From Bdellovibrionota bacterium FG-1 (lineage in GTDB: Bacteria > Bdellovibrionota > UBA1018): a stretch of DNA of 64,000 nt. Position 1 is the stretch's first letter. Each line of letters starts with the position of its first letter. This document shows positions 52,724 through 63,850 of the stretch, piece by piece. Below the pieces are notes generated by a model. That model had not been told where the DNA came from. It saw only the letters and a program-made list of their open reading frames with translations, and searched no databases. The stretch lies in NCBI GenBank assembly GCA_051382295.1, contig JBBCAW010000041.1, positions 30,504 through 94,503 on the forward strand. Direction: 5' to 3'. The position numbers were made by a program, and so were the translations under genes.

Positions 52724-53608
52724 ATGGCGACTCTTTTATTTCCGACCGCATTAAAAAGTTTTTTAGGCTACCTCGAGGGGACAAGCAAGGCTCAGCATAC
52801 CATCAAGAATTACCGGCTTGATCTTCTTGCTTTTGAATCCTTTCTTAGAAAAGACCTGGGCGACCGACCTTTATCCCTGGGACAGCTATCATCCAAGGAT
52901 CTCGATCGATTTCATGAGCACCTCAAAGAGTCCGGGCAAAAAACCAATACGCGTCGAAGAAAACTCCTGACCGTCCGCAGATTTCTGAGCTTCTTGGTGA
53001 AACGCAAAAAGCTCCCTATCGAACTCGGGAAAAAGATCTCTACCCCCCATAAAATTGAAAGAGTTCCCAAGGTTTTGTCCTCCGAAACTTTGATTGCGAC
53101 GATCCGGGCGTTGCCGCATGACACGTTTTTGGATGCACGTAATCGAGCCATGCTCTGGACGCTGGCTGAAACCGGCTGCCAAGTCAGTGAGTTAGCCGCT
53201 CTTCGATTTGAGGACTGGAGCGCAAACAAAGTCCAAATTCGAGGCAAAGCCCCCCGCCTGCTCGCGATTTCGAGCGACCTCAGAACGGCAGTGGATGAAC
53301 TCAAAAAGTACTGTGGTGATAGGCCCTGGGTTTTTCTGGGTTTTAATAAACTTGGCCCCCTCGGGGGAGCCATTTCTCCTCGCGGAGTCGAGCTCTTAGT
53401 TCAATTCCACGCACCTCGCCTTGGGCAGGTTGAGCTCACGCCAAGGACCTTTCGGCATTCGATTGTGATTCATTGGTATGCACAAGGATGTACTCTTCAA
53501 GAGATTCAAAACCGACTGGGCCTTAAAACTCAGTATGCCTTTCGATCCTACGAACCGCTCTTCAAATCCGTGCTCAAATCCAAGAGCGAAACCACATCCA
53601 ATCCCTGA
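52724..53608 (+). CDS. XerC/D-like tyrosine recombinase with degenerate catalytic residues
   Basis: Core-binding domain (HTIKNYRLDL, NTRRRKL) is intact; GCQVSE (R>Q), PRTFRH (H>R) and LGL (H/W>L) are substituted; Tyr is retained. Confidence 0.8.
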   Translation: MATLLFPTALKSFLGYLEGTSKAQHTIKNYRLDLLAFESFLRKDLGDRPLSLGQLSSKDLDRFHEHLKESGQKTNTRRRKLLTVRRFLSFLVKRKKLPIELGKKISTPHKIERVPKVLSSETLIATIRALPHDTFLDARNRAMLWTLAETGCQVSELAALRFEDWSANKVQIRGKAPRLLAISSDLRTAVDELKKYCGDRPWVFLGFNKLGPLGGAISPRGVELLVQFHAPRLGQVELTPRTFRHSIVIHWYAQGCTLQEIQNRLGLKTQYAFRSYEPLFKSVLKSKSETTSNP

Positions 53609-54998
53609 AAGTTTCGGACGAAATCCGAAGTGCGGCGATAATAGGGAAAAAATAAACAAACATCACCAAAACACACGCCAAAAAAGCCCAACGAGCCTGA
53701 CTGATCCATTGAAAACGTTCGCTCAAAGTCGTTTTTTGAATGAGTTCAAAAGCATAAGCGAGTGCGAAACTCAACACCATTCCCGCAGGATAGTAATAGT
53801 AATAAAAGGCGATTTTGCGAGGAATCAGTATCCAACATCCATAAAAAGTAAAATAGAACACCAAAATTAAAAATGCTTGCCGACTGCGTTTTTCGATCCA
53901 TCCCCACAAACATCCCAGCAGAGCCAAACATCCCCCCCACATGACCAGGGGGTTACCAATCAACAGAACCCCCCGAACCCACTCTTTCGCCCCGCCCTCC
54001 TTATCAAAGGCATACCAAATGGGACGCCTGATCAAAGGCCAGTCGAGCCAGTTGCTCATATAAGGATGTTGGGTCACCACTCGGAGTTGACCTTCGTACA
54101 TTTTTTTCTGGGTTAAAAAAAGATCCCAAAATCCGAACGCGGGTTTTTGCAAAAAGAAATACGGCGTAAACGTCGCAAAATAGATCAAAACAGGAACGAC
54201 AAAAAGTGTGAGCGCAAACTCATGCCCCCGAACGCCCTTCCAAAGATCAGGTGAATACCAGTCTTCGGAGGTAGGTTCGCTAAACTGGACGTTCCAGCGC
54301 TGAAAAAGACGAACCAGGGCAATGAGCCCCAAACACATGACCCACGGCATTACGGCAAACCACTTGCACGCCATCCCTAGGCCCAAGCACACTCCAGAAA
54401 TGAGGAGCAATTTCCGCGAAAGAGCGGGAGAAATTCCCGCACGCCAGGTCGCTGTAAAAGCCGCCAGCCCCCAAACGACCCCGGCAAACATAAAGGTGTC
54501 CAGCATGCCGATTCTGGATTGAACATACAAAAGTTGATTAAAGAGAGTGACGAGGGCAATCCACAAAGCTGTGGCTTCACTTTCAAACAGCACCAGTCCC
54601 CAAAGGTACATTCCTACGAGTGTGAAGGCGCCGAAAATCGTGCTCATAAAGCGCCAACCAATAGGGATATCCCCCCAAAGAGAGATCCCGACGGCCATTA
54701 CTAACTTAGCTAGCGGTGGATGCTCCCAATTTTGATTTTCCTTCCAAGCAAGCCATTGTTTCGCTGAAGGAACATAATGAAACTCATCAAAGTTATGCCC
54801 CCGTGGAAACTGAATATTGATCAAGAAAAAGATCTGACTCAGCAAGTAAAGAGCCAAACATATCCACAGAATTTTCCGAAAACGACTAGGTGTCCAAAAT
54901 GGAGTAGGGAGGGAGGGCAGTGCTAACTCAGTTTTTTTTCGGTCTTTGCGTCGAGAGTTCACTTGAATGAGACTAAGGCCGTCCGGGGTACTGGTCAA
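53574..54998 (-). CDS. PMT-family (GT39) protein O-mannosyltransferase-like glycosyltransferase
   Basis: FDEFHYV, EHPPLAK, GWRF, SRIGMLD, HPYMS..W.WP, GNP..W, YYYYP motifs; start uncertain. Confidence 0.88.
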   Translation of the reverse strand: MTSTPDGLSLIQVNSRRKDRKKTELALPSLPTPFWTPSRFRKILWICLALYLLSQIFFLINIQFPRGHNFDEFHYVPSAKQWLAWKENQNWEHPPLAKLVMAVGISLWGDIPIGWRFMSTIFGAFTLVGMYLWGLVLFESEATALWIALVTLFNQLLYVQSRIGMLDTFMFAGVVWGLAAFTATWRAGISPALSRKLLLISGVCLGLGMACKWFAVMPWVMCLGLIALVRLFQRWNVQFSEPTSEDWYSPDLWKGVRGHEFALTLFVVPVLIYFATFTPYFFLQKPAFGFWDLFLTQKKMYEGQLRVVTQHPYMSNWLDWPLIRRPIWYAFDKEGGAKEWVRGVLLIGNPLVMWGGCLALLGCLWGWIEKRSRQAFLILVFYFTFYGCWILIPRKIAFYYYYYPAGMVLSFALAYAFELIQKTTLSERFQWISQARWAFLACVLVMFVYFFPIIAALRISSETFRDWMWFRSWI

Positions 54999-55051
54999 GT
55001 TGACTTTGGAGGCTAGGTTCAGGTAACAAATAATGAGGAGAATTTTTAAGA

Positions 55052-55639
55052 ATGAATCAGGAATTAGGTCGAAATGAACCCTGTCATTGCGGAAGCGGCA
55101 AAAAATACAAGCGGTGTCATGGCGTCAGTGCCGCGCCTAAGTTAACCCCGCCCAAATTGCCTGCTGTTGCTGCAGATGGCTCAACTCCTAATCCTATGAT
55201 GCCGGGCGGAATAGACCCGAGCAAACTAGACCCGGACATGATGAGGCAGTTTTCACAGTTGCTTCAACGCCTCCCTAAAGGTCAGCTTCAACGACTTCAG
55301 GGTATTATGCAAAGGGCTATGAGTGGCCAAGATGTCACGCGCGAAGCCTCCGAATTTGAAAAGACGCTTCCGGTCGAGCTTCAATCGCTCATGATTTCGT
55401 TTGCAGGGCAGATGGGCCAGATGGGGGCAGCAGGGGCGGAAGTCGAAGTTCCTTCAGAAACGAGTGGCATGTCCGAAGAACAAGCTCGGGAGATCGTGGC
55501 CGCTGCCGCGGCCGAAGGTCGGATTGAAAAGGATGAGGCCGAAAAACTGCTCACGGATTCAGCACAAACCAGTGAAAAGAAAAAGGGCCTTTCTAAGCTT
55601 TGGAGCGGTTTGACGGGTAAGAACCCCTCATCCACATGA
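55052..55639 (+). CDS. SEC-C motif protein
   Basis: [19 protein letters not shown] at the N-terminus. Confidence 0.88.
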
Positions 55640-56478
55640 AATCACTTCCCCGCCTTCCATCGTTGATAGGTGTGATTCACCTTCCCCCGTTGGCCGGGAC
55701 TCCGGGTAGCGCCAACGCAAATGAAGCGCTACAAAAAGCAGGGCTTCGGGCGGTTCAGGAAGCCAAGGCTTTGACTGATGCCGGCTTTGATGGGTTAATC
55801 CTTGAAAATTTTGGTGATGTTCCCTTTTATAAGACTCAAGTACCGCCCGAAACCGTTGCCAGCATGGCGATTATTGCGGCGGCAGTTCGGGAAGCCACCA
55901 AAATCTTGATTGGAATTAACGTTCTCCGCAACGATGCCCGCGCAGCGCTTGCCATCGCGGCAGTGAGCGGATGTGATTTTATTCGAGTGCATGTCCTATC
56001 GGGCGTGTCAGCCACTGACCAAGGTCTCATCGAAGGAGATGCTGCCTTCCTACTTCGAGAACGCGACCGCTTAGGAGCCCCGCACATCGCGATTTTAGCC
56101 GATGCGCTCGTCAAACATGCACGCACATTTTCAACGGATCAAATCGAGCTTGCGATCGAAGAAGTTGTCCTTCGAGCTGGCGCTCAAGGCGCCATCCTCA
56201 CTGGAACCACTACCGGCCGCCCCGTAGATATGATGCAGCTGGAGAAAGCCTCGAACCACGCGCGTAAGCACGGTATTCCCCTTTATATTGGAAGCGGTGC
56301 TACGCAAAAAAACATACTGGACCTTCGCAAATGGGCCACTGGAATCATTGTGGGTTCCGCTCTTCGAAAAGGAGGGAAGGCGGGCGCGCCGCTAGACCTT
56401 AAAGCGACCCGAGCCTTTGCGAAGGTTTTTTTTTCTAGACGAGGAAAAACCCAGGGAAAAAGCGGGGCCAAAAGATGA
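55636..56478 (+). CDS. btpA: BtpA/SgcQ family TIM-barrel protein
   Basis: [36 protein letters not shown] motifs. Confidence 0.9.
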
Positions 56479-57773
56479 AGAAAAGATCGCGCCGCGGACA
56501 AACCCAGTCCGCTTTAGGCGGACTGATCTTAAAACGTCTGCGCGGATCTCGGCCTACTCGAAAACGTTCACTCAAAACGAAAGCTCAACCTTCCAGCCCC
56601 TTCCAATTCAAGCCTCGGTTCAAAATCAAAAAGCCTCGAATCCGACAGCCAGTAGCTGTAGCGGCACCGCGGTTGCCGCAAAAGGTAGCCGTCCCAGTCG
56701 CTGCTCCCCTTGTTCAAGCTATTCTGCCTGAAGCTGTTGCTCCTACTACGGGCTATTTAACGGCGCGCGCGCTGATTCGTCCGGACGACCGACTCAGGCA
56801 ATGTATCGAAGGCTTTTTGCTCGATCAGCGCTCCGAACACACCCGGCGCGCTTACGGAAAAGACCTGAAGCGCTTTATGGGTTTTCTACTGGGTCGCAAT
56901 TATTCGGATCAAACGCTGGATCGCATTGATCGCAGCGCATTGGTCGCTTATAAAGACCAACTTCTAGGGGAGGGGCTCGAACATACCACGGTGGATCGCC
57001 ATCTGGCCACACTCCGTAGTTTTTTCAGATGGCTTCAAGACGATGGCTGGATCGAAAAAAATCCGGCTGAAGGTGTCCGTTTCCTCAATCCCCGCAAGCT
57101 CTCAACCACCATTGGTTTTAGCGACGAAGAGGTGGTGCGCGTTCTTAAAATGCCCGATCTCCACACCCGAACAGGATCACTGCATTATGCGATCTTAATG
57201 GTACTTTTTTATTGTGGTCTCAGGCGTTCCGAGGTGTGCTCGCTTCGAACGTCGAGCATTACGGTTGAACGCGCCCAGAAAGTACTTCGTTTACGCGGAA
57301 AAGGTAATGTTGAGCGTCTGATCGTGCTCGTTCCGGTTGCCTGGAATGCACTGAAACACTATTTTTTGATCACAGCAAAGAATCCAACCGTGGACCAGCC
57401 CCTTTTTGTGCCCATTCGAAACAATCGAACCGGCGACATGACCAAGTCACTTGACCCCTCCATGGTTTTTTATATTGTCAGAAGATATGCAAAACTAGCG
57501 GGAATCCAGTCCCGGGTTTCACCGCATTCATGCCGCGCGACGGCGATATCCAACGCGCGCGACCATAACGTGCCTGATCGAGCCATCCAGGAGTTTGCGG
57601 GCTGGGCGTCGCCGGACATGATCACTCGCTATGATAAGCGCCGCAGTGCGATCGAGCACTCAGCTGCACACTCCATTGCCTATGGCACCGAACAAAGAGC
57701 CTTACCTACTTGGGTTTCAACCTACGATCCGCCCGGAACGATCAGGGAGTCGCCAAGCACGCATGAACTTTGA
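56475..57773 (+). CDS. Tyrosine recombinase (XerC/D-like) with intact catalytic set and long basic N-terminal extension
   Basis: GLRRSE, GKG, HSCR, GW, RY residues; HTRRAYGKDL and TVDRHLATLRSFF core-binding domain. Confidence 0.9.
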   Translation: MKKRSRRGQTQSALGGLILKRLRGSRPTRKRSLKTKAQPSSPFQFKPRFKIKKPRIRQPVAVAAPRLPQKVAVPVAAPLVQAILPEAVAPTTGYLTARALIRPDDRLRQCIEGFLLDQRSEHTRRAYGKDLKRFMGFLLGRNYSDQTLDRIDRSALVAYKDQLLGEGLEHTTVDRHLATLRSFFRWLQDDGWIEKNPAEGVRFLNPRKLSTTIGFSDEEVVRVLKMPDLHTRTGSLHYAILMVLFYCGLRRSEVCSLRTSSITVERAQKVLRLRGKGNVERLIVLVPVAWNALKHYFLITAKNPTVDQPLFVPIRNNRTGDMTKSLDPSMVFYIVRRYAKLAGIQSRVSPHSCRATAISNARDHNVPDRAIQEFAGWASPDMITRYDKRRSAIEHSAAHSIAYGTEQRALPTWVSTYDPPGTIRESPSTHEL

Positions 57774-59052: not shown

Positions 59053-59802
59053 CTACCGGGGGCAACGTTCTAGATCCGGATTGCATAAGGTGTCAGGCAA
59101 GGGATCGGCGGTGAAAGCGATAACGGCCGTGCAGGTGATGACTTTGCTGAAGTCTAAAAGGTAGGTGTCTTTTGAATTCTGCTCAAGATCCCCCAGTTTG
59201 TTTCGATCCACGGTGCATTGAGCGCTCACTACACCCATACTTTTTACAACGACCATTTTGCTCAGTTCTGGCCGGTCTACTGAAGTACCCAATAATCGGA
59301 CTTGAACGCCGTAATTATGCAGTGCCTGCGCGGCCGCCCAGCCGAGAGAGTCTGCGTAAGATTGATATTGGTTTAAAAAATCGCATTGAGCACCACAGCT
59401 CTGCGGTAAATCACCCCTGACGTCAAAATGCGTCAGAAGGGGCAATGGAGACAAGATCGATTTTTCATCTAAAGTAGCCAGGACGGAGCTGCCCTGAAGC
59501 TGGGTACTTTGGATGTCAAATTGGGGATTGCCATCCTTCCCTGTGATCAAGCTGGTTACGTCCAACGATACAAGCGGTGCCAGCCATTGAGCGCTTTTAA
59601 GCTCAATACCATAGGCAGCGGCTACCGAAGCGGGCAAGGTGTCATCCATACGCACGGTTTTCCCGTTGATCACAAGCTGAGCCTCCACCTTTAGACCAAT
59701 TGAGGCATCCACTGTGCCTACCTTCATGTCAGTCCCGTTACAGGCCGTGACCGTAAAGGTCAGCATCATTAAGCTACTCAAAATTCCATTAAAACGACTC
59801 AT
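59053..59802 (-). CDS. Lipoprotein, hypothetical
   Basis: Lipobox VTAC; GAGGT SD. Confidence 0.7.
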   Translation of the reverse strand: MSRFNGILSSLMMLTFTVTACNGTDMKVGTVDASIGLKVEAQLVINGKTVRMDDTLPASVAAAYGIELKSAQWLAPLVSLDVTSLITGKDGNPQFDIQSTQLQGSSVLATLDEKSILSPLPLLTHFDVRGDLPQSCGAQCDFLNQYQSYADSLGWAAAQALHNYGVQVRLLGTSVDRPELSKMVVVKSMGVVSAQCTVDRNKLGDLEQNSKDTYLLDFSKVITCTAVIAFTADPLPDTLCNPDLERCPR

Positions 59803-59927
59803 AACTATACCTCTTCAATCAATTAGATAGACGATTTGCAACTCTAATAACGCAGTGCGTCTAGTTCTGTCAATGGTGTTTTGCAAAAATTACGCGCTTC
59901 CTGCGGGAGGCCTCGTAAACCGGATTG

Positions 59928-59955
59928 ATTCGCGATAACTTTTCTTATCGCGAAT
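59928..59955. other. 28-bp symmetric dif-like recombination site (11-6-11)
   Basis: ATTCGCGATAA-CTTTTC-TTATCGCGAAT, perfect inverted 11-bp arms. Confidence 0.6.
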
Positions 59956-60016
59956 GAGAAATGGAAGGTAGAGCGATCCTGGCGTCTTTAATAACGACGT
60001 GCTTTAATCTACCGAT

Positions 60017-60331
60017 ATGGAGTCGTCGATGAAGTGTCTCAACTGCCAAAAAGAGTTTCCTGAGGAAGCAAAGCCACGCGCCGGCATCGCCATCATGGTT
60101 GCCGGAGACGAGTATACCTACTCGTACTGGCAGTGCGAGGTCTGCTCCTTTTATACCGTGAAGTCTTACTACGACCCTTTTATGGGAGACAACAGCGAGG
60201 TCACCTTCTTGCCTCCCATGTCAAAAGAGGTCGGTGATCGCTGTGTCGCCTTGGTGCTGGCCTGCCCAGCCCCCTTTGACAAGTACTGCGAGTGTGCGTC
60301 TCATCAAGCCCTTTATCGTGGGTCGGCGTAG
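60017..60331 (+). CDS. Small Cys-rich zinc-binding hypothetical protein
   Basis: CLNC, CEVC, C-x7-CEC-x2-H. Confidence 0.65.
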   Translation: MESSMKCLNCQKEFPEEAKPRAGIAIMVAGDEYTYSYWQCEVCSFYTVKSYYDPFMGDNSEVTFLPPMSKEVGDRCVALVLACPAPFDKYCECASHQALYRGSA

Positions 60332-60348: not shown

Positions 60349-61143
60349 TTACTCTTCGACCGTGATCTGGTTCCGGAATAACCGCTCCAGTGCTTCCGCG
60401 GTGTCATGCCAGTCACAATCCGTAAGCCGCTCCAAGGTAAAATGGCGCGTGCAATTTTCCAGCAATCGCTGAAGTGGTGCGAGCGCGATCAATGGGATCG
60501 AAAGTACGTCCGAATCATTCATGGCCGCGCCCATTCGAATAATGTCTCGCAGGTGCTTCACGGCTTTGTTTCTATCTCTGGAATTTGCTGAAACACTTAG
60601 ATTCTCAAACGCATAGGCCTTCATGACCACCAGAAGTGGGATGCTTGCCACCGGAAGAAGTTCATCCCCTTTCTCGTCGAGTGGTAAATATTCGCGATGA
60701 ACCTTGAGCAAGTTTACAAAGTGGGGTTCGCAGACAATTGAGGACATTTCAAATTCTTCGAGCCGCTGCGTGGGCCTTGCAAGGGGGATTCCCTCTTTGC
60801 GACGGGTTGCAATTTCAAGTTGGGAAGGCGCCAAAGGATCGGTTGGTTTTGTGAATCGATAAGCCTGTGCCTTTCCGCTCGTAAGGGCGGCACATTCATA
60901 TCCGCAGCTATTCACATAATTTCCGAACTCAATCAGAAAGTCCGATGCCTGACCATCTTCAGACAAATCCAGCGTAACGATGTCAAGATCGTCGGTTTTT
61001 CGCGGTCGCTTATCTACCCGGCGCTCAATCTGAAGGAGCATTGCGGTTCCACCAATCACCACGAACTTTTCCTTGTGCGGTGCGAATCTGCGTACGAAAT
61101 ATCCGGTATTCTTGGGTGGCGATTGCATTATGGCTGCTCCCAA
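60349..61143 (-). CDS. AbiEii-like nucleotidyltransferase toxin (type IV TA)
   Basis: VVIGGTA, RKTDDLD, MKAYA, KHLRDI motifs. Confidence 0.8.
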   Translation of the reverse strand: MGAAIMQSPPKNTGYFVRRFAPHKEKFVVIGGTAMLLQIERRVDKRPRKTDDLDIVTLDLSEDGQASDFLIEFGNYVNSCGYECAALTSGKAQAYRFTKPTDPLAPSQLEIATRRKEGIPLARPTQRLEEFEMSSIVCEPHFVNLLKVHREYLPLDEKGDELLPVASIPLLVVMKAYAFENLSVSANSRDRNKAVKHLRDIIRMGAAMNDSDVLSIPLIALAPLQRLLENCTRHFTLERLTDCDWHDTAEALERLFRNQITVEE

Positions 61144-62186
61144 AGTGCATTAGGATCAAGGTCATGCGCCGTCACGACTTGGGCCAGCGCGTCGCGAACT
61201 CGCGGGTCGCGTGAGCGGCGCGTATAGAGTGAAAGCTCGATGGAGTTCAGACATTCGTGCTCAGACAAAAACCGAGGATTATCTTTCCAGACCTCAACCA
61301 CAATCGGAATGTTTCGGCCCGCAATGCCTTCTTCCACATTTCCGGGAATAAACTGATCCTGCTGCCAACGATGAAATTCCTTACCCGACATCGCGATAGT
61401 CACCGAGTCGGGTTCGCTCAAGTGGGTCATTCGTGAGAGAGCCGTTTCGCCAGAAAAAACGTATTGAGATATGTCTTTTGGTATTCCCGAAACTTTACCC
61501 TTTCGAATCACCGTCTCCGTCTCAAGTCTGAGGAGTCCGGTCCAGACGTGATTGCGATCTTCAAAATGAAAACGTTTATGTGGGCCTCCGCCTGTGACGG
61601 TAATAAGCTGATGGCCAAGAAGCTGCTGAAACCCCCGCGAGAGCGAACTGATCGAGGTCTCCGCACCGTTTTCGGTTATAGCTTTTGCCCAATCGCGCAA
61701 CGTCCATTGCGGCGAGATTTTTTTCGGCTTCAGAAGAAATAGAACGATGGCTTTTTGAGCGCTTTGCAACAAGCGCTCGTGGATCACTCTTTCTGGAACC
61801 TCACGGAGCAAGTCCGAACGATACCAAGTCCCAAGCTGTGGAGCATAGACCGCCTTTCCGGTGAAGACATGCGGAATGCCCAATCTCACGAGTATTCCTG
61901 CGGATTGGATTGGGAGCGGGTCGGCGACCAGCAATGTGACTATCTCGTCCAAACGCGATGTGACCCGGTAAAGCCGAATGGCTTCTTCGACAGTTGTGGC
62001 ATCTCTTGGCACTATGAGTGCGATTTGGTGATCGGGCCATCGCGCAAGATAGAAATCCGCAACCTGCCGTGCCCAGGCTGGCAACCCAGGAATTTTATGT
62101 ACGGTGACGCCGGGGATGGGAATACTGGTTTTTCGATTGGCCATGAACTGACTGAGGTAGCGTGCGGCAGAAGAAGCAGTCTCCAT
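61128..62186 (-). CDS. AbiEi-like/MarR-type HTH antitoxin
   Basis: HTH (ETSISSLSRGFQQL), SGETALSRMTHLSEP, ELSLY..DPRV motifs; overlaps the NTase gene; leaderless TTGAAT-N16-TATAAT promoter at 62194-62221. Confidence 0.75.
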   Translation of the reverse strand: METASSAARYLSQFMANRKTSIPIPGVTVHKIPGLPAWARQVADFYLARWPDHQIALIVPRDATTVEEAIRLYRVTSRLDEIVTLLVADPLPIQSAGILVRLGIPHVFTGKAVYAPQLGTWYRSDLLREVPERVIHERLLQSAQKAIVLFLLKPKKISPQWTLRDWAKAITENGAETSISSLSRGFQQLLGHQLITVTGGGPHKRFHFEDRNHVWTGLLRLETETVIRKGKVSGIPKDISQYVFSGETALSRMTHLSEPDSVTIAMSGKEFHRWQQDQFIPGNVEEGIAGRNIPIVVEVWKDNPRFLSEHECLNSIELSLYTRRSRDPRVRDALAQVVTAHDLDPNALWEQP

Positions 62187-62422: not shown

Positions 62423-63568
62423 CTACTGCTCACTCGGGGCCACGGAACAGCGGAAGCCGAGATACGGCCACGTGCTCAAACGCGAAAAAGCTAGCGACAA
62501 ATTCCATCGTCCGGCTGGAGCCCCCGTGAACGTCGCTCCACCCACGACGGCGCTCCGCAGTACACCGGTATCATCATGTGAAGTGCCGTCGGCATCAGGT
62601 AATGTGTAGGTGCCATCCGAGAAGAGAGTGAACGAGTCGCCTTGGAGTTTGGCCGTTGAAATACCTGCACCGATTGCAAGCGCATTTCCTCCATCACTGC
62701 CAACCATAGGGAGACCCATCGGCGCCGAGAAATAACCAGCGCCGAAGCCTTGAGCCACGGCCGTGCCACCCGCGACTCCAACCGAAAAGAGCCAACTCAG
62801 CGTTCCACTGCTAAATCCGTCAGGGTCACCGCCTGGGAATAGCTGCCCATTGGCTGATCCGCCTGGACCTTGGCTGTGACCTGCCGTGCCGTCAAAATAA
62901 AATCCATTGAGATCACGATTGCCGCTGTCGATGTTGGACGTAATGCCCGTACACGAATGGGAGGATCCCGCATTGCACTGGTCAAGCTGATCGCTCATGT
63001 ATTGATCAACGTTGCCCACCATATCTTGCGCGCCAAAGCGAGATGAGCAGTTTTTCGTTGAATTCGCACCGATGATAACCTGTTTAACGGTGCCGACATT
63101 AGCGCCCGCGCAATCTCCCGTCGGAAAATCACACGTCAAACCCGTGGCACTCTTCGTATTGCACCGAGCCTTGGCCGCATTTGTTAAATGGTCCAAATCA
63201 GTGGTGTATTCCATCGTGTCAATTGCGGCAGTAGACCAGTCCGTAGGCCAAGCGGCGGCCGCGATGTATTCACGATGCCGAAGTAAGCGCTTGGCCCCGT
63301 AATCGGGGTCGGCGGCGGCGACGCAAATGTCATTGGCCCTGGTCTGGTTGACATTGGTGAGCGGTGGCTTGGCCGTCGCGGCCGTGGCCGATGGGGTTAC
63401 AGTATACACCGCTGCTCGCTGGTCGGTGGTGAGAGTGGCGACGTTGCTCGACTTCCATACCCCTGCCACCTTAATCCAACAACCACTGGCTTTGGCGTCG
63501 TAAAACACGTTTCCATCGGCTCCGATTGAATTGTTGGGTAGAACCAGAGTATAGCCGTCCAGCTGATA
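62423..63568 (-). pseudogene. C-terminal part of an FGE-sulfatase/C-type-lectin-fold protein, interrupted by an IS110 insertion
   Basis: QDMVGNV, RSAVVGG, LGFRC motifs; the first ~36 aa of the ORF-track product come from the IS end. Confidence 0.7.
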
Positions 63569-63589
63569 TGGATGGACCCGCCCTTCGTT

Positions 63590-63850
63590 GCAAGGAATTT
63601 TTTGAATCGTGATTTTCAAGTCATTTGAATCGGATGCACCTATGGATCCGGCCTTTAGTTGAGTATTTGACTTCACTCTGGCCCTGATGGGGTTTGCGTC
63701 CTCTGTCCTGATTATCCGATCGGCCTCAAGGGCCTATATCCGCAGCAGGTTTTCAGAGAACCGGTCCGACCTGACTTTTCCATCACTTTTCGTATTTTCC
63801 TCGCAATCCGCTGACGTTAAACCTTACCCTTCAAACTTCTCTCTATGCCC
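63590..63850 (-). ncRNA. Putative bridge/seekRNA of the IS1111-type element
   Basis: GATGG..CAGGTCGGACCG, AAACCTG, CCATCAGGGCCAG, AGGCCGGATCCATA motifs downstream of the transposase; boundaries approximate. Confidence 0.65.

Follow-up and report, generated by a model that had tools for sequence, protein, structure and literature searches.

To our knowledge, XerS, XerH, XerL and XerA are all found in hosts without XerCD, and how the switch from one system to another happens has so far been a matter of speculation. The loxP site of Cre has 13-bp arms and an 8-bp spacer. The dif site of XerCD has an 11-6-11 geometry with an ATAA/TTAT core and lies at the terminus, according to the available parts of PMC2731167 and PMC11318664. 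A dif site was predicted for Bdellovibrio bacteriovorus HD100 (available parts of PMC2731167 and PMC11318664, and of the PMC3025954 supplement). XerS is a single enzyme. Its difSL site is 31 bp long with unequal arms and lies directly upstream of xerS; the available part of PMC1914069 likens this layout to mobile modules and also describes YnbA, a second, catalytically defective recombinase. XerH/difH and archaeal XerA/dif each combine a single recombinase with a terminus site, and XerA also uses 11-bp inverted arms; the portions available of PMC2731167 and PMC5357621 do not describe coexistence of either with XerCD/dif. XerL/difL belongs to Legionellales, which lack XerCD. It uses one recombinase and an intergenic site with perfectly symmetric 10-bp arms, no known Xer motif and varying neighbours. 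The site lies tens of kilobases from the skew switch, and there is a link to a plasmid-borne form (PMC9765430, part available).

We analyzed a 64,000-nucleotide stretch of DNA, here called the window, which forms the right-hand end of contig C41 in a 4.44-Mb assembly of 158 contigs (G000). It contains a 28-bp palindromic site and an intact tyrosine recombinase (Table 1). Sequence comparisons indicate that the two probably form a second, single-enzyme chromosome dimer-resolution system beside ordinary XerCD/dif.

Table 1. Features of the locus, with positions in the window
Feature	Position	Strand	Remarks
Putative second, dif-like site with a symmetric 11-6-11 core for recombination	59928..59955	.	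ATTCGCGATAA-CTTTTC-TTATCGCGAAT; based on sequence, uniqueness, co-occurrence with recombinase, co-varying arms
Left arm ATTCGCGATAA	59928..59938	+	Predicted binding site of one recombinase subunit
Asymmetric 6-bp spacer CTTTTC	59939..59944	+	Predicted strand-exchange region; not self-complementary
Right arm TTATCGCGAAT	59945..59955	+	Exact reverse complement of left arm
Tyrosine recombinase, 432 aa, putatively cognate	56475..57773	+	Core-binding and catalytic domains, basic N-terminal extension
Xer-like paralogue without first catalytic Arg and both His	52724..53608	+	Conserved neighbour of the system
Conserved intervening genes, including SEC-C protein and BtpA	53574..56478	+	Tie the recombinase to a cluster of core genes

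Coexistence with XerCD/dif sets this system apart from XerS, XerH, XerL and XerA. It shares the geometry, core and terminus location of XerCD/dif. It differs in having identical arms in place of XerC- and XerD-specific ones, and in that an ordinary dif is found separately. It resembles XerS/difSL in its single enzyme, in having the site immediately ahead of the gene in most of the clade's families, in its module-like layout and in the presence of a degenerate paralogue that recalls the streptococcal YnbA. However, the recombinase scores 49.1 bits against the XerS model (cut-off 267), the arms are identical, XerCD/dif is kept, and in family f1 the site has moved downstream of the gene. With XerH and XerA the locus shares a single recombinase and a terminus site, and with XerA also the 11-bp inverted arms. 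XerH matches the profile of the present family only at an E value of 0.11 (5jjv/5jk0), and the recombinase scores 97 bits against the XerA model (cut-off 220). Common to the locus and XerL/difL are a lone recombinase, arms of perfect symmetry, an intergenic location with varying neighbours, a distance of tens of kilobases from the skew switch and a plasmid link. The comparator was the plasmid recombinase CBUA0010, which we took to be XerL from the available part of PMC9765430. It is 23% identical (E value of 5e-5) and stands apart from the present enzyme in the tree; the present site, unlike difL, keeps ATAA-N6-TTAT, and G000 has XerCD. Cre/loxP is not matched by the 11-6-11 site. The only shared feature is a Trp in the last motif, and Cre is absent among the 11 PDB matches of the family profile (E values up to 10). 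The enzyme most likely works like XerS, XerH, XerL and XerA. It belongs to none of them; the orthology test failed for each.

The recombinase contains an intact catalytic set, R250-K276-H351-R354-W377-Y386, in which Trp replaces the second His. It scores 131.6 bits against the XerC model and 121.2 bits against the XerD model (cut-offs 335 and 330). It has no RQ motif at the position of that of XerD, and it falls outside the XerC and XerD clades in trees. XerD is among its best matches of solved structure. Residues 1 to 100 (56475-56774) are of low complexity with 24 Lys or Arg and 1 acidic residue, and the length of this extension varies among orthologues. Orthologues, called at an E value of at most 1e-50, were found as single copies in 42/60 relatives. 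Relatives of the recombinase occur in records of Oligoflexia, Bdellovibrionia or Bacteriovoracaceae, including UBA1018, and the gene is probably one of UBA1018-type Bdellovibrionota; a sequence-atlas search returned generic recombinase clusters only. All 44 Trp-bearing members of the clade keep R-K-H-R-W-Y, and they group largely by host family (quick tree, support of 98). The recombinase core is more conserved than XerD in 66/66 pairs among 12 genomes (70% versus 62%). The dN/dS ratio is 0.04 to 0.09 in the three pairs with estimable dS, which indicates that the recombinase is under strong purifying selection.

The closest named sequences are plasmid tyrosine recombinases of Pseudomonas, Burkholderiales, Azotobacter and cyanobacteria, with about 34% identity. 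They differ from the present enzyme in being plasmid-borne and in having His where it has Trp. A sister position of the plasmid enzymes has support of 96 to 97 in two trees, and a third tree gives no resolution. We found no tested function for them. Identification of these relatives as StbA was rejected, since the available part of PMC6354349 places StbA under another resolvase domain. The best matches in phage records are about 29% identical to the recombinase. No related recombinase was found in viral contigs, and an origin from phage was therefore rejected. The site pattern has 8 viral matches, one of which has a weak tblastn match. A looser pattern has 120 viral matches, and a related recombinase lies beside 0/120 of them. 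In two viral contigs (L186, 4999-6159; L188, 4999-6064), a Trp-bearing, Cre-like integrase that is only weakly related to the present family is immediately preceded by a similar perfect palindrome. Of the 120 viral matches (L342-L461), many of them on contigs of about 14 kb, 12 are occurrences of one near-palindrome that shares the core, and no related recombinase lies within 3 kb of it.

The site is intergenic, with divergent ORFs at 59053-59802(-) and 60017-60331(+) on either side, and it begins 2,155 bp downstream of the recombinase stop. The sequence-only reading had described a perfect 11-6-11 symmetry around an asymmetric spacer. This was borne out by complementarity of the arms at 11/11 positions; the next base outward is already asymmetric. 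That reading also proposed a check of uniqueness, and the palindrome gave a single match in the 4.44-Mb assembly with up to 5 substitutions allowed. The genome contains 17 perfect 11-6-11 repeats, so symmetry alone is unremarkable. It contains 63 ATAA-N6-TTAT cores, and 1 of these is perfect, versus 0.004 expected. No terminator-like or promoter-like matches were found in 59700-60100.

G000 encodes XerC (C123) and XerD (C5), the catalytic domains of which alone score 223 and 214 bits against their respective models. XerD retains the RQ motif, and FtsK is also encoded. A matrix was built from the asymmetric sites in nine relative loci. It retrieved two ordinary dif copies from G000, C38:58905 and C25:19246. 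Both carry an XerD-type arm (TTATGTTAA-type), which the palindrome does not, and both resemble the dif listed for B. bacteriovorus HD100 in the available part of PMC2731167. The palindrome had been read as the chromosomal dif. It is instead a second site, because XerC, XerD and ordinary dif copies exist elsewhere in the genome, and its assignment as the dif of XerCD was rejected. Ordinary dif was found with at most one mismatch in 43/61 genomes; at two mismatches the control also gives matches. Pattern searches for ordinary dif gave matches at chance level in f18 and f22. Two XerC/XerD-grade matches were present in 27/27 carriers outside f16 and in 2/5 carriers in f16. The two ordinary dif copies of G000 have different spacers and unrelated flanks. 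Three genomes without the third recombinase (G045, G058 and G060) also have two copies each. A second replicon, an integrated element and contamination are candidate explanations for the doubled dif. On a small contig of G000 (C37:1234-2231), another tyrosine recombinase, of 306 aa, is preceded at 50 bp by a dif-like site.

Sites in relatives were called at up to 3 mismatches, with the reversed pattern as a control. The sequence-only reading had paired the dif-type core with this recombinase and proposed to look for conservation near orthologues. The pairing was upheld, with gene and site kept or lost together and arms that co-vary. The site was found in 31/42 relatives with an orthologue and in 0/18 without one, and the control gave 0/61. 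It is single copy in 29 of the 31 carriers. Four of the 11 orthologue carriers without a match have diverged symmetric sites near the gene. Families f1 and f10, in an overlapping sample of 300 genomes, have the site in 25/27 genomes with the gene and 0/19 without it. Family f18 has it in 30/31 gene-bearing genomes, and 1 of 3 gene-less, incomplete genomes also has it. In genus g46 it is present in 5/5 genomes with the gene and 0/6 without it. These counts take in related genomes, and the non-independence of kin means that they, and the Fisher values, overstate the association. Two gene-less genomes (G044 and G031) have an upstream cluster that continues to ordinary dif, with neither gene nor site. 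Gene and site are dispensable, because 18/60 relatives lack both. A loose pattern was applied to f1, f10, f18 and f28 only, because of chance matches in the AT-rich families f15, f21, f22 and f25. A scan of metagenomes that started from the site gave 41 matches, 11 of which have the gene within the flank of up to 3 kb per side. Taken from these patterns of sequence conservation, the palindrome and the enzyme are very probably cognate.

We compared 53 sites, 40 of them distinct. They were selected on the ATAA/TTAT core, so that the core itself is no evidence, and the spacer length was fixed by the searches. The inner ATAA is present in 53/53, partly through this selection. Base pairs vary at arm positions 1 to 6. 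The outer seven arm positions are symmetric at 5.9, versus 4.86 +/- 0.12 for shuffled partners. The spacers are of 17 types, and 0/53 are palindromic. Flanks are unrelated between genomes save for a few T/A bases. We infer that this pattern fits binding of the core by identical subunits, with an exchange region that has a direction.

Placement of the site varies among families. Among 26 cases from this order with gene and site on one contig, 24 have the site downstream, and the distance is 42 bp to 52.6 kb. Its orientation relative to the gene is purine-rich in 14, pyrimidine-rich in 9 and even in 3. In distant families a core with at least 8/11 symmetric bases lies up to 2.2 kb upstream in 27/40 loci, with 0.026 expected per locus. 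The site is near the gene start in f2, f13, f14, f16, f18 and f28, and the f18 version contains TATAAT. Plasmid relatives have an ATAA-N6-TTAT core upstream in 3/5 (11, 10 and 7 of 11 bases symmetric). Genome G159 (L337/L341) contains two direct copies of a site variant, at C11:1166 and 3119, within identical 129-bp repeats that are 1,953 bp apart. The repeats enclose one gene, and an adjoining fragment looks like a serine recombinase. This arrangement is possibly a site-flanked cargo module.

The sequence-only reading proposed GC skew as a check of a terminus position. Skew supports this position in relatives and is weak in G000 itself. In 12 genomes with both sites on one contig, the palindrome is 130 bp to 27.9 kb from ordinary dif. 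Distances between the site and the peak of cumulative GC skew are 11 kb (G054) and 27 kb (G005); in both genomes ordinary dif is closer to the peak. Of 8 sampled contigs, 5 have the sign change of the skew at the gene; the change is about 50 kb off in G037 and unclear in G134, and the sampled windows showed no switch at the G227 gene. KOPS polarity, judged from few motifs, switches around ordinary dif in G054 and around the palindrome in G005. For G000, the skew peak lies 9 kb from the site, only 13 kb of contig follow that peak, and the peaks of other contigs are equal or larger. Contig C41 ends 4 kb past the site. The motif GGGNAGGG has a leading-strand bias of 255 versus 67 and points to the contig end. 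The skew in relatives and the proximity of ordinary dif place both the gene and its site in the terminus region.

Neighbours of the gene are conserved on one side. The btpA gene adjoins the recombinase in 26/29 loci, and one ORF among the intervening genes is presumably mannosyltransferase-like. The site itself had been placed at a boundary between core and accessory DNA. That boundary belongs at the recombinase stop (57773) instead, and the 2 genes between recombinase and site, with 3 tested to the right, have no match in the loci of other genomes. Of the cargo described to the right, the toxin-antitoxin pair was recovered (AbiEii, 22.8 bits versus a cut-off of 22.5), and a 131-bp repeat is the only trace of the insertion sequence. 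The pair at 60349-62186 is an AbiE-like type IV system with paralogous pairs on C1 and C62. The repeat (63561-63691) is common to the ends of contigs C67 and C150 and is probably the end of an insertion sequence. A gene at 62.3-63.5 kb has a 79% identical copy on C72. The degenerate paralogue is present in 45/60 relatives and lies near the terminus in this order. It is kept in genomes without the active gene and site, and this query did not find it in f10, where gene and site persist; it is therefore unlikely to be an obligatory partner. Degenerate proteins similar to it are present in f22 and f36.

Family f22, probably Bacteriovoracaceae (a sister relation bearing on this is given in the available part of PMC13200544), appears to lack XerCD. 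We surveyed 81 genomes that were at least 90% complete with an XerD profile at 1e-55, a threshold passed by XerC and XerD of other families. It detected XerC or XerD in 0/81. The recombinases of nine f22 genomes and one f36 genome were placed in trees, and none fell within XerC/XerD. A homologue of the present recombinase was found in 76/81. No other intact tyrosine recombinase was found in G227 or in the 0.9-Mb G279, both of which are near-complete and XerCD-less. In four closed f22 chromosomes the homologue lies at 49.8, 48.9, 47.5 and 45.5% from dnaA. The f22 enzymes are 30 to 35% identical to the present one, with support of 89 to 94 for a joint clade in quick trees. We found 7 perfect palindromes among the 29 f22 genomes searched, and 6 of them lie 1 to 42 kb from the homologue. 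The seventh is an 11-6-11 site 51 bp upstream of a recombinase of a different clade, L288 (G199 C19:123511). Seven such genes cluster with the f22 homologues in a Bdellovibrionota clade (support of 89). No site emerged from palindrome searches in G068, G377 and G202 or in the f22 subclade containing G227. Members of an f22/f36 subclade (L281, L290, L303, L305 and L278) can be the sole intact recombinase of a genome and have no nearby palindrome.

Under the reading that we prefer, one subunit would bind each identical arm of the palindrome. Four identical subunits would then synapse two sister copies of the site as a homotetramer, and Tyr386 would cleave at the spacer edges. On a chromosome dimer the sites would be direct repeats; the asymmetric spacer may set their alignment, and the dimer would become monomers after two rounds of strand exchange. 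The module may have originated as a plasmid-type resolvase with the site in its own promoter and then settled at the terminus. In f22 it may have become the only system.

The enzyme and site may instead be a recombining pair with another role: at the terminus they may provide mobile cargo with a landing pad or a place of resolution, or, as a domesticated element, they may do a different job such as local inversion. Accessory genes lie on both sides of the site, the closest named relatives are plasmid recombinases (about 34%) of which 3/5 have a similar core upstream, the orientation of the site varies (14/9/3), and G159 has 1.95 kb between its two direct copies. We nevertheless consider this role unlikely. 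Nearly all carriers have one site copy per chromosome, the tree tracks the hosts, and purifying selection is strong. A related recombinase is found neither in viral contigs nor beside the 120 viral pattern matches, and the homologue is the sole intact recombinase in two near-complete genomes without XerCD. The earlier description of the site as an att site found little support for the same reasons of copy number, host-tracking inheritance and viral scans. It is more improbable still that the enzyme acts as an autorepressor or a terminus-organizing anchor, binding the site but not productively recombining it. All of the catalytic residues are invariant, and the spacers vary and are never palindromic. 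Such binding would fit a site near the gene start in the six families listed above, the TATAAT of f18 and the basic, low-complexity N-terminal extension. In f1, however, the site cannot be the operator of the recombinase gene, because it is downstream and up to 52.6 kb away.

The palindrome has the ATAA-N6-TTAT core, the 11-6-11 geometry and the region in common with dif, and it might be a second substrate of XerC/XerD, or the XerCD dif, with only a positional link to the adjoining gene. This is very unlikely, since the palindrome has no XerD-type arm like that in the ordinary dif of these genomes, is absent in 18/18 relatives without the third recombinase although XerCD is retained in several of them, and has related perfect palindromes in the XerCD-less f22. 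An operator for the divergent genes was the alternative named in the sequence-only reading. The divergent ORFs around the site would suit an operator, and the 17 perfect 11-6-11 repeats a chance hairpin. We give almost no credence to either. The operator was rejected because the site is conserved across genera without the neighbouring genes, and the flanks vary with them.

We found no description of such a system in the literature searched, which most subscription journals and many supplements lay outside. PMC11656739 contains no Xer terms. The PMC8138268 supplement contains no Bdellovibrionota names, and the PMC3025954 supplement contains HD100 only. It is possible, and we propose it tentatively, that Bdellovibrionota record the replacement of XerCD/dif in three stable states, with a domesticated plasmid-derived resolvase as the newcomer. 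The available part of PMC8138268 argues against domestication of mobile integrases. The states would be XerCD only (f21, with no newcomer match, and 18/60 close relatives), both systems (in many, where the newcomer is better conserved than XerD), and the newcomer only (f22). We speculate that the newcomer is kept because it would need neither septum nor FtsK for unlinking, as might matter in multi-chromosome predator filaments.

Related enzyme-site pairs that stand alone in a neighbouring, XerCD-less family suggest that one chromosome-unlinking system is replacing another. Intact coexistence across many genera, loss of gene and site as a unit and the stand-alone pair of f22 make the transition directly testable. 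If the preferred reading is true, a family without XerCD, probably one that includes cultured predators, would gain the dimer-resolution system that it has seemed to lack. The reading would also yield a new collection of 28-bp recombinase/site pairs, symmetric and differing in specificity.
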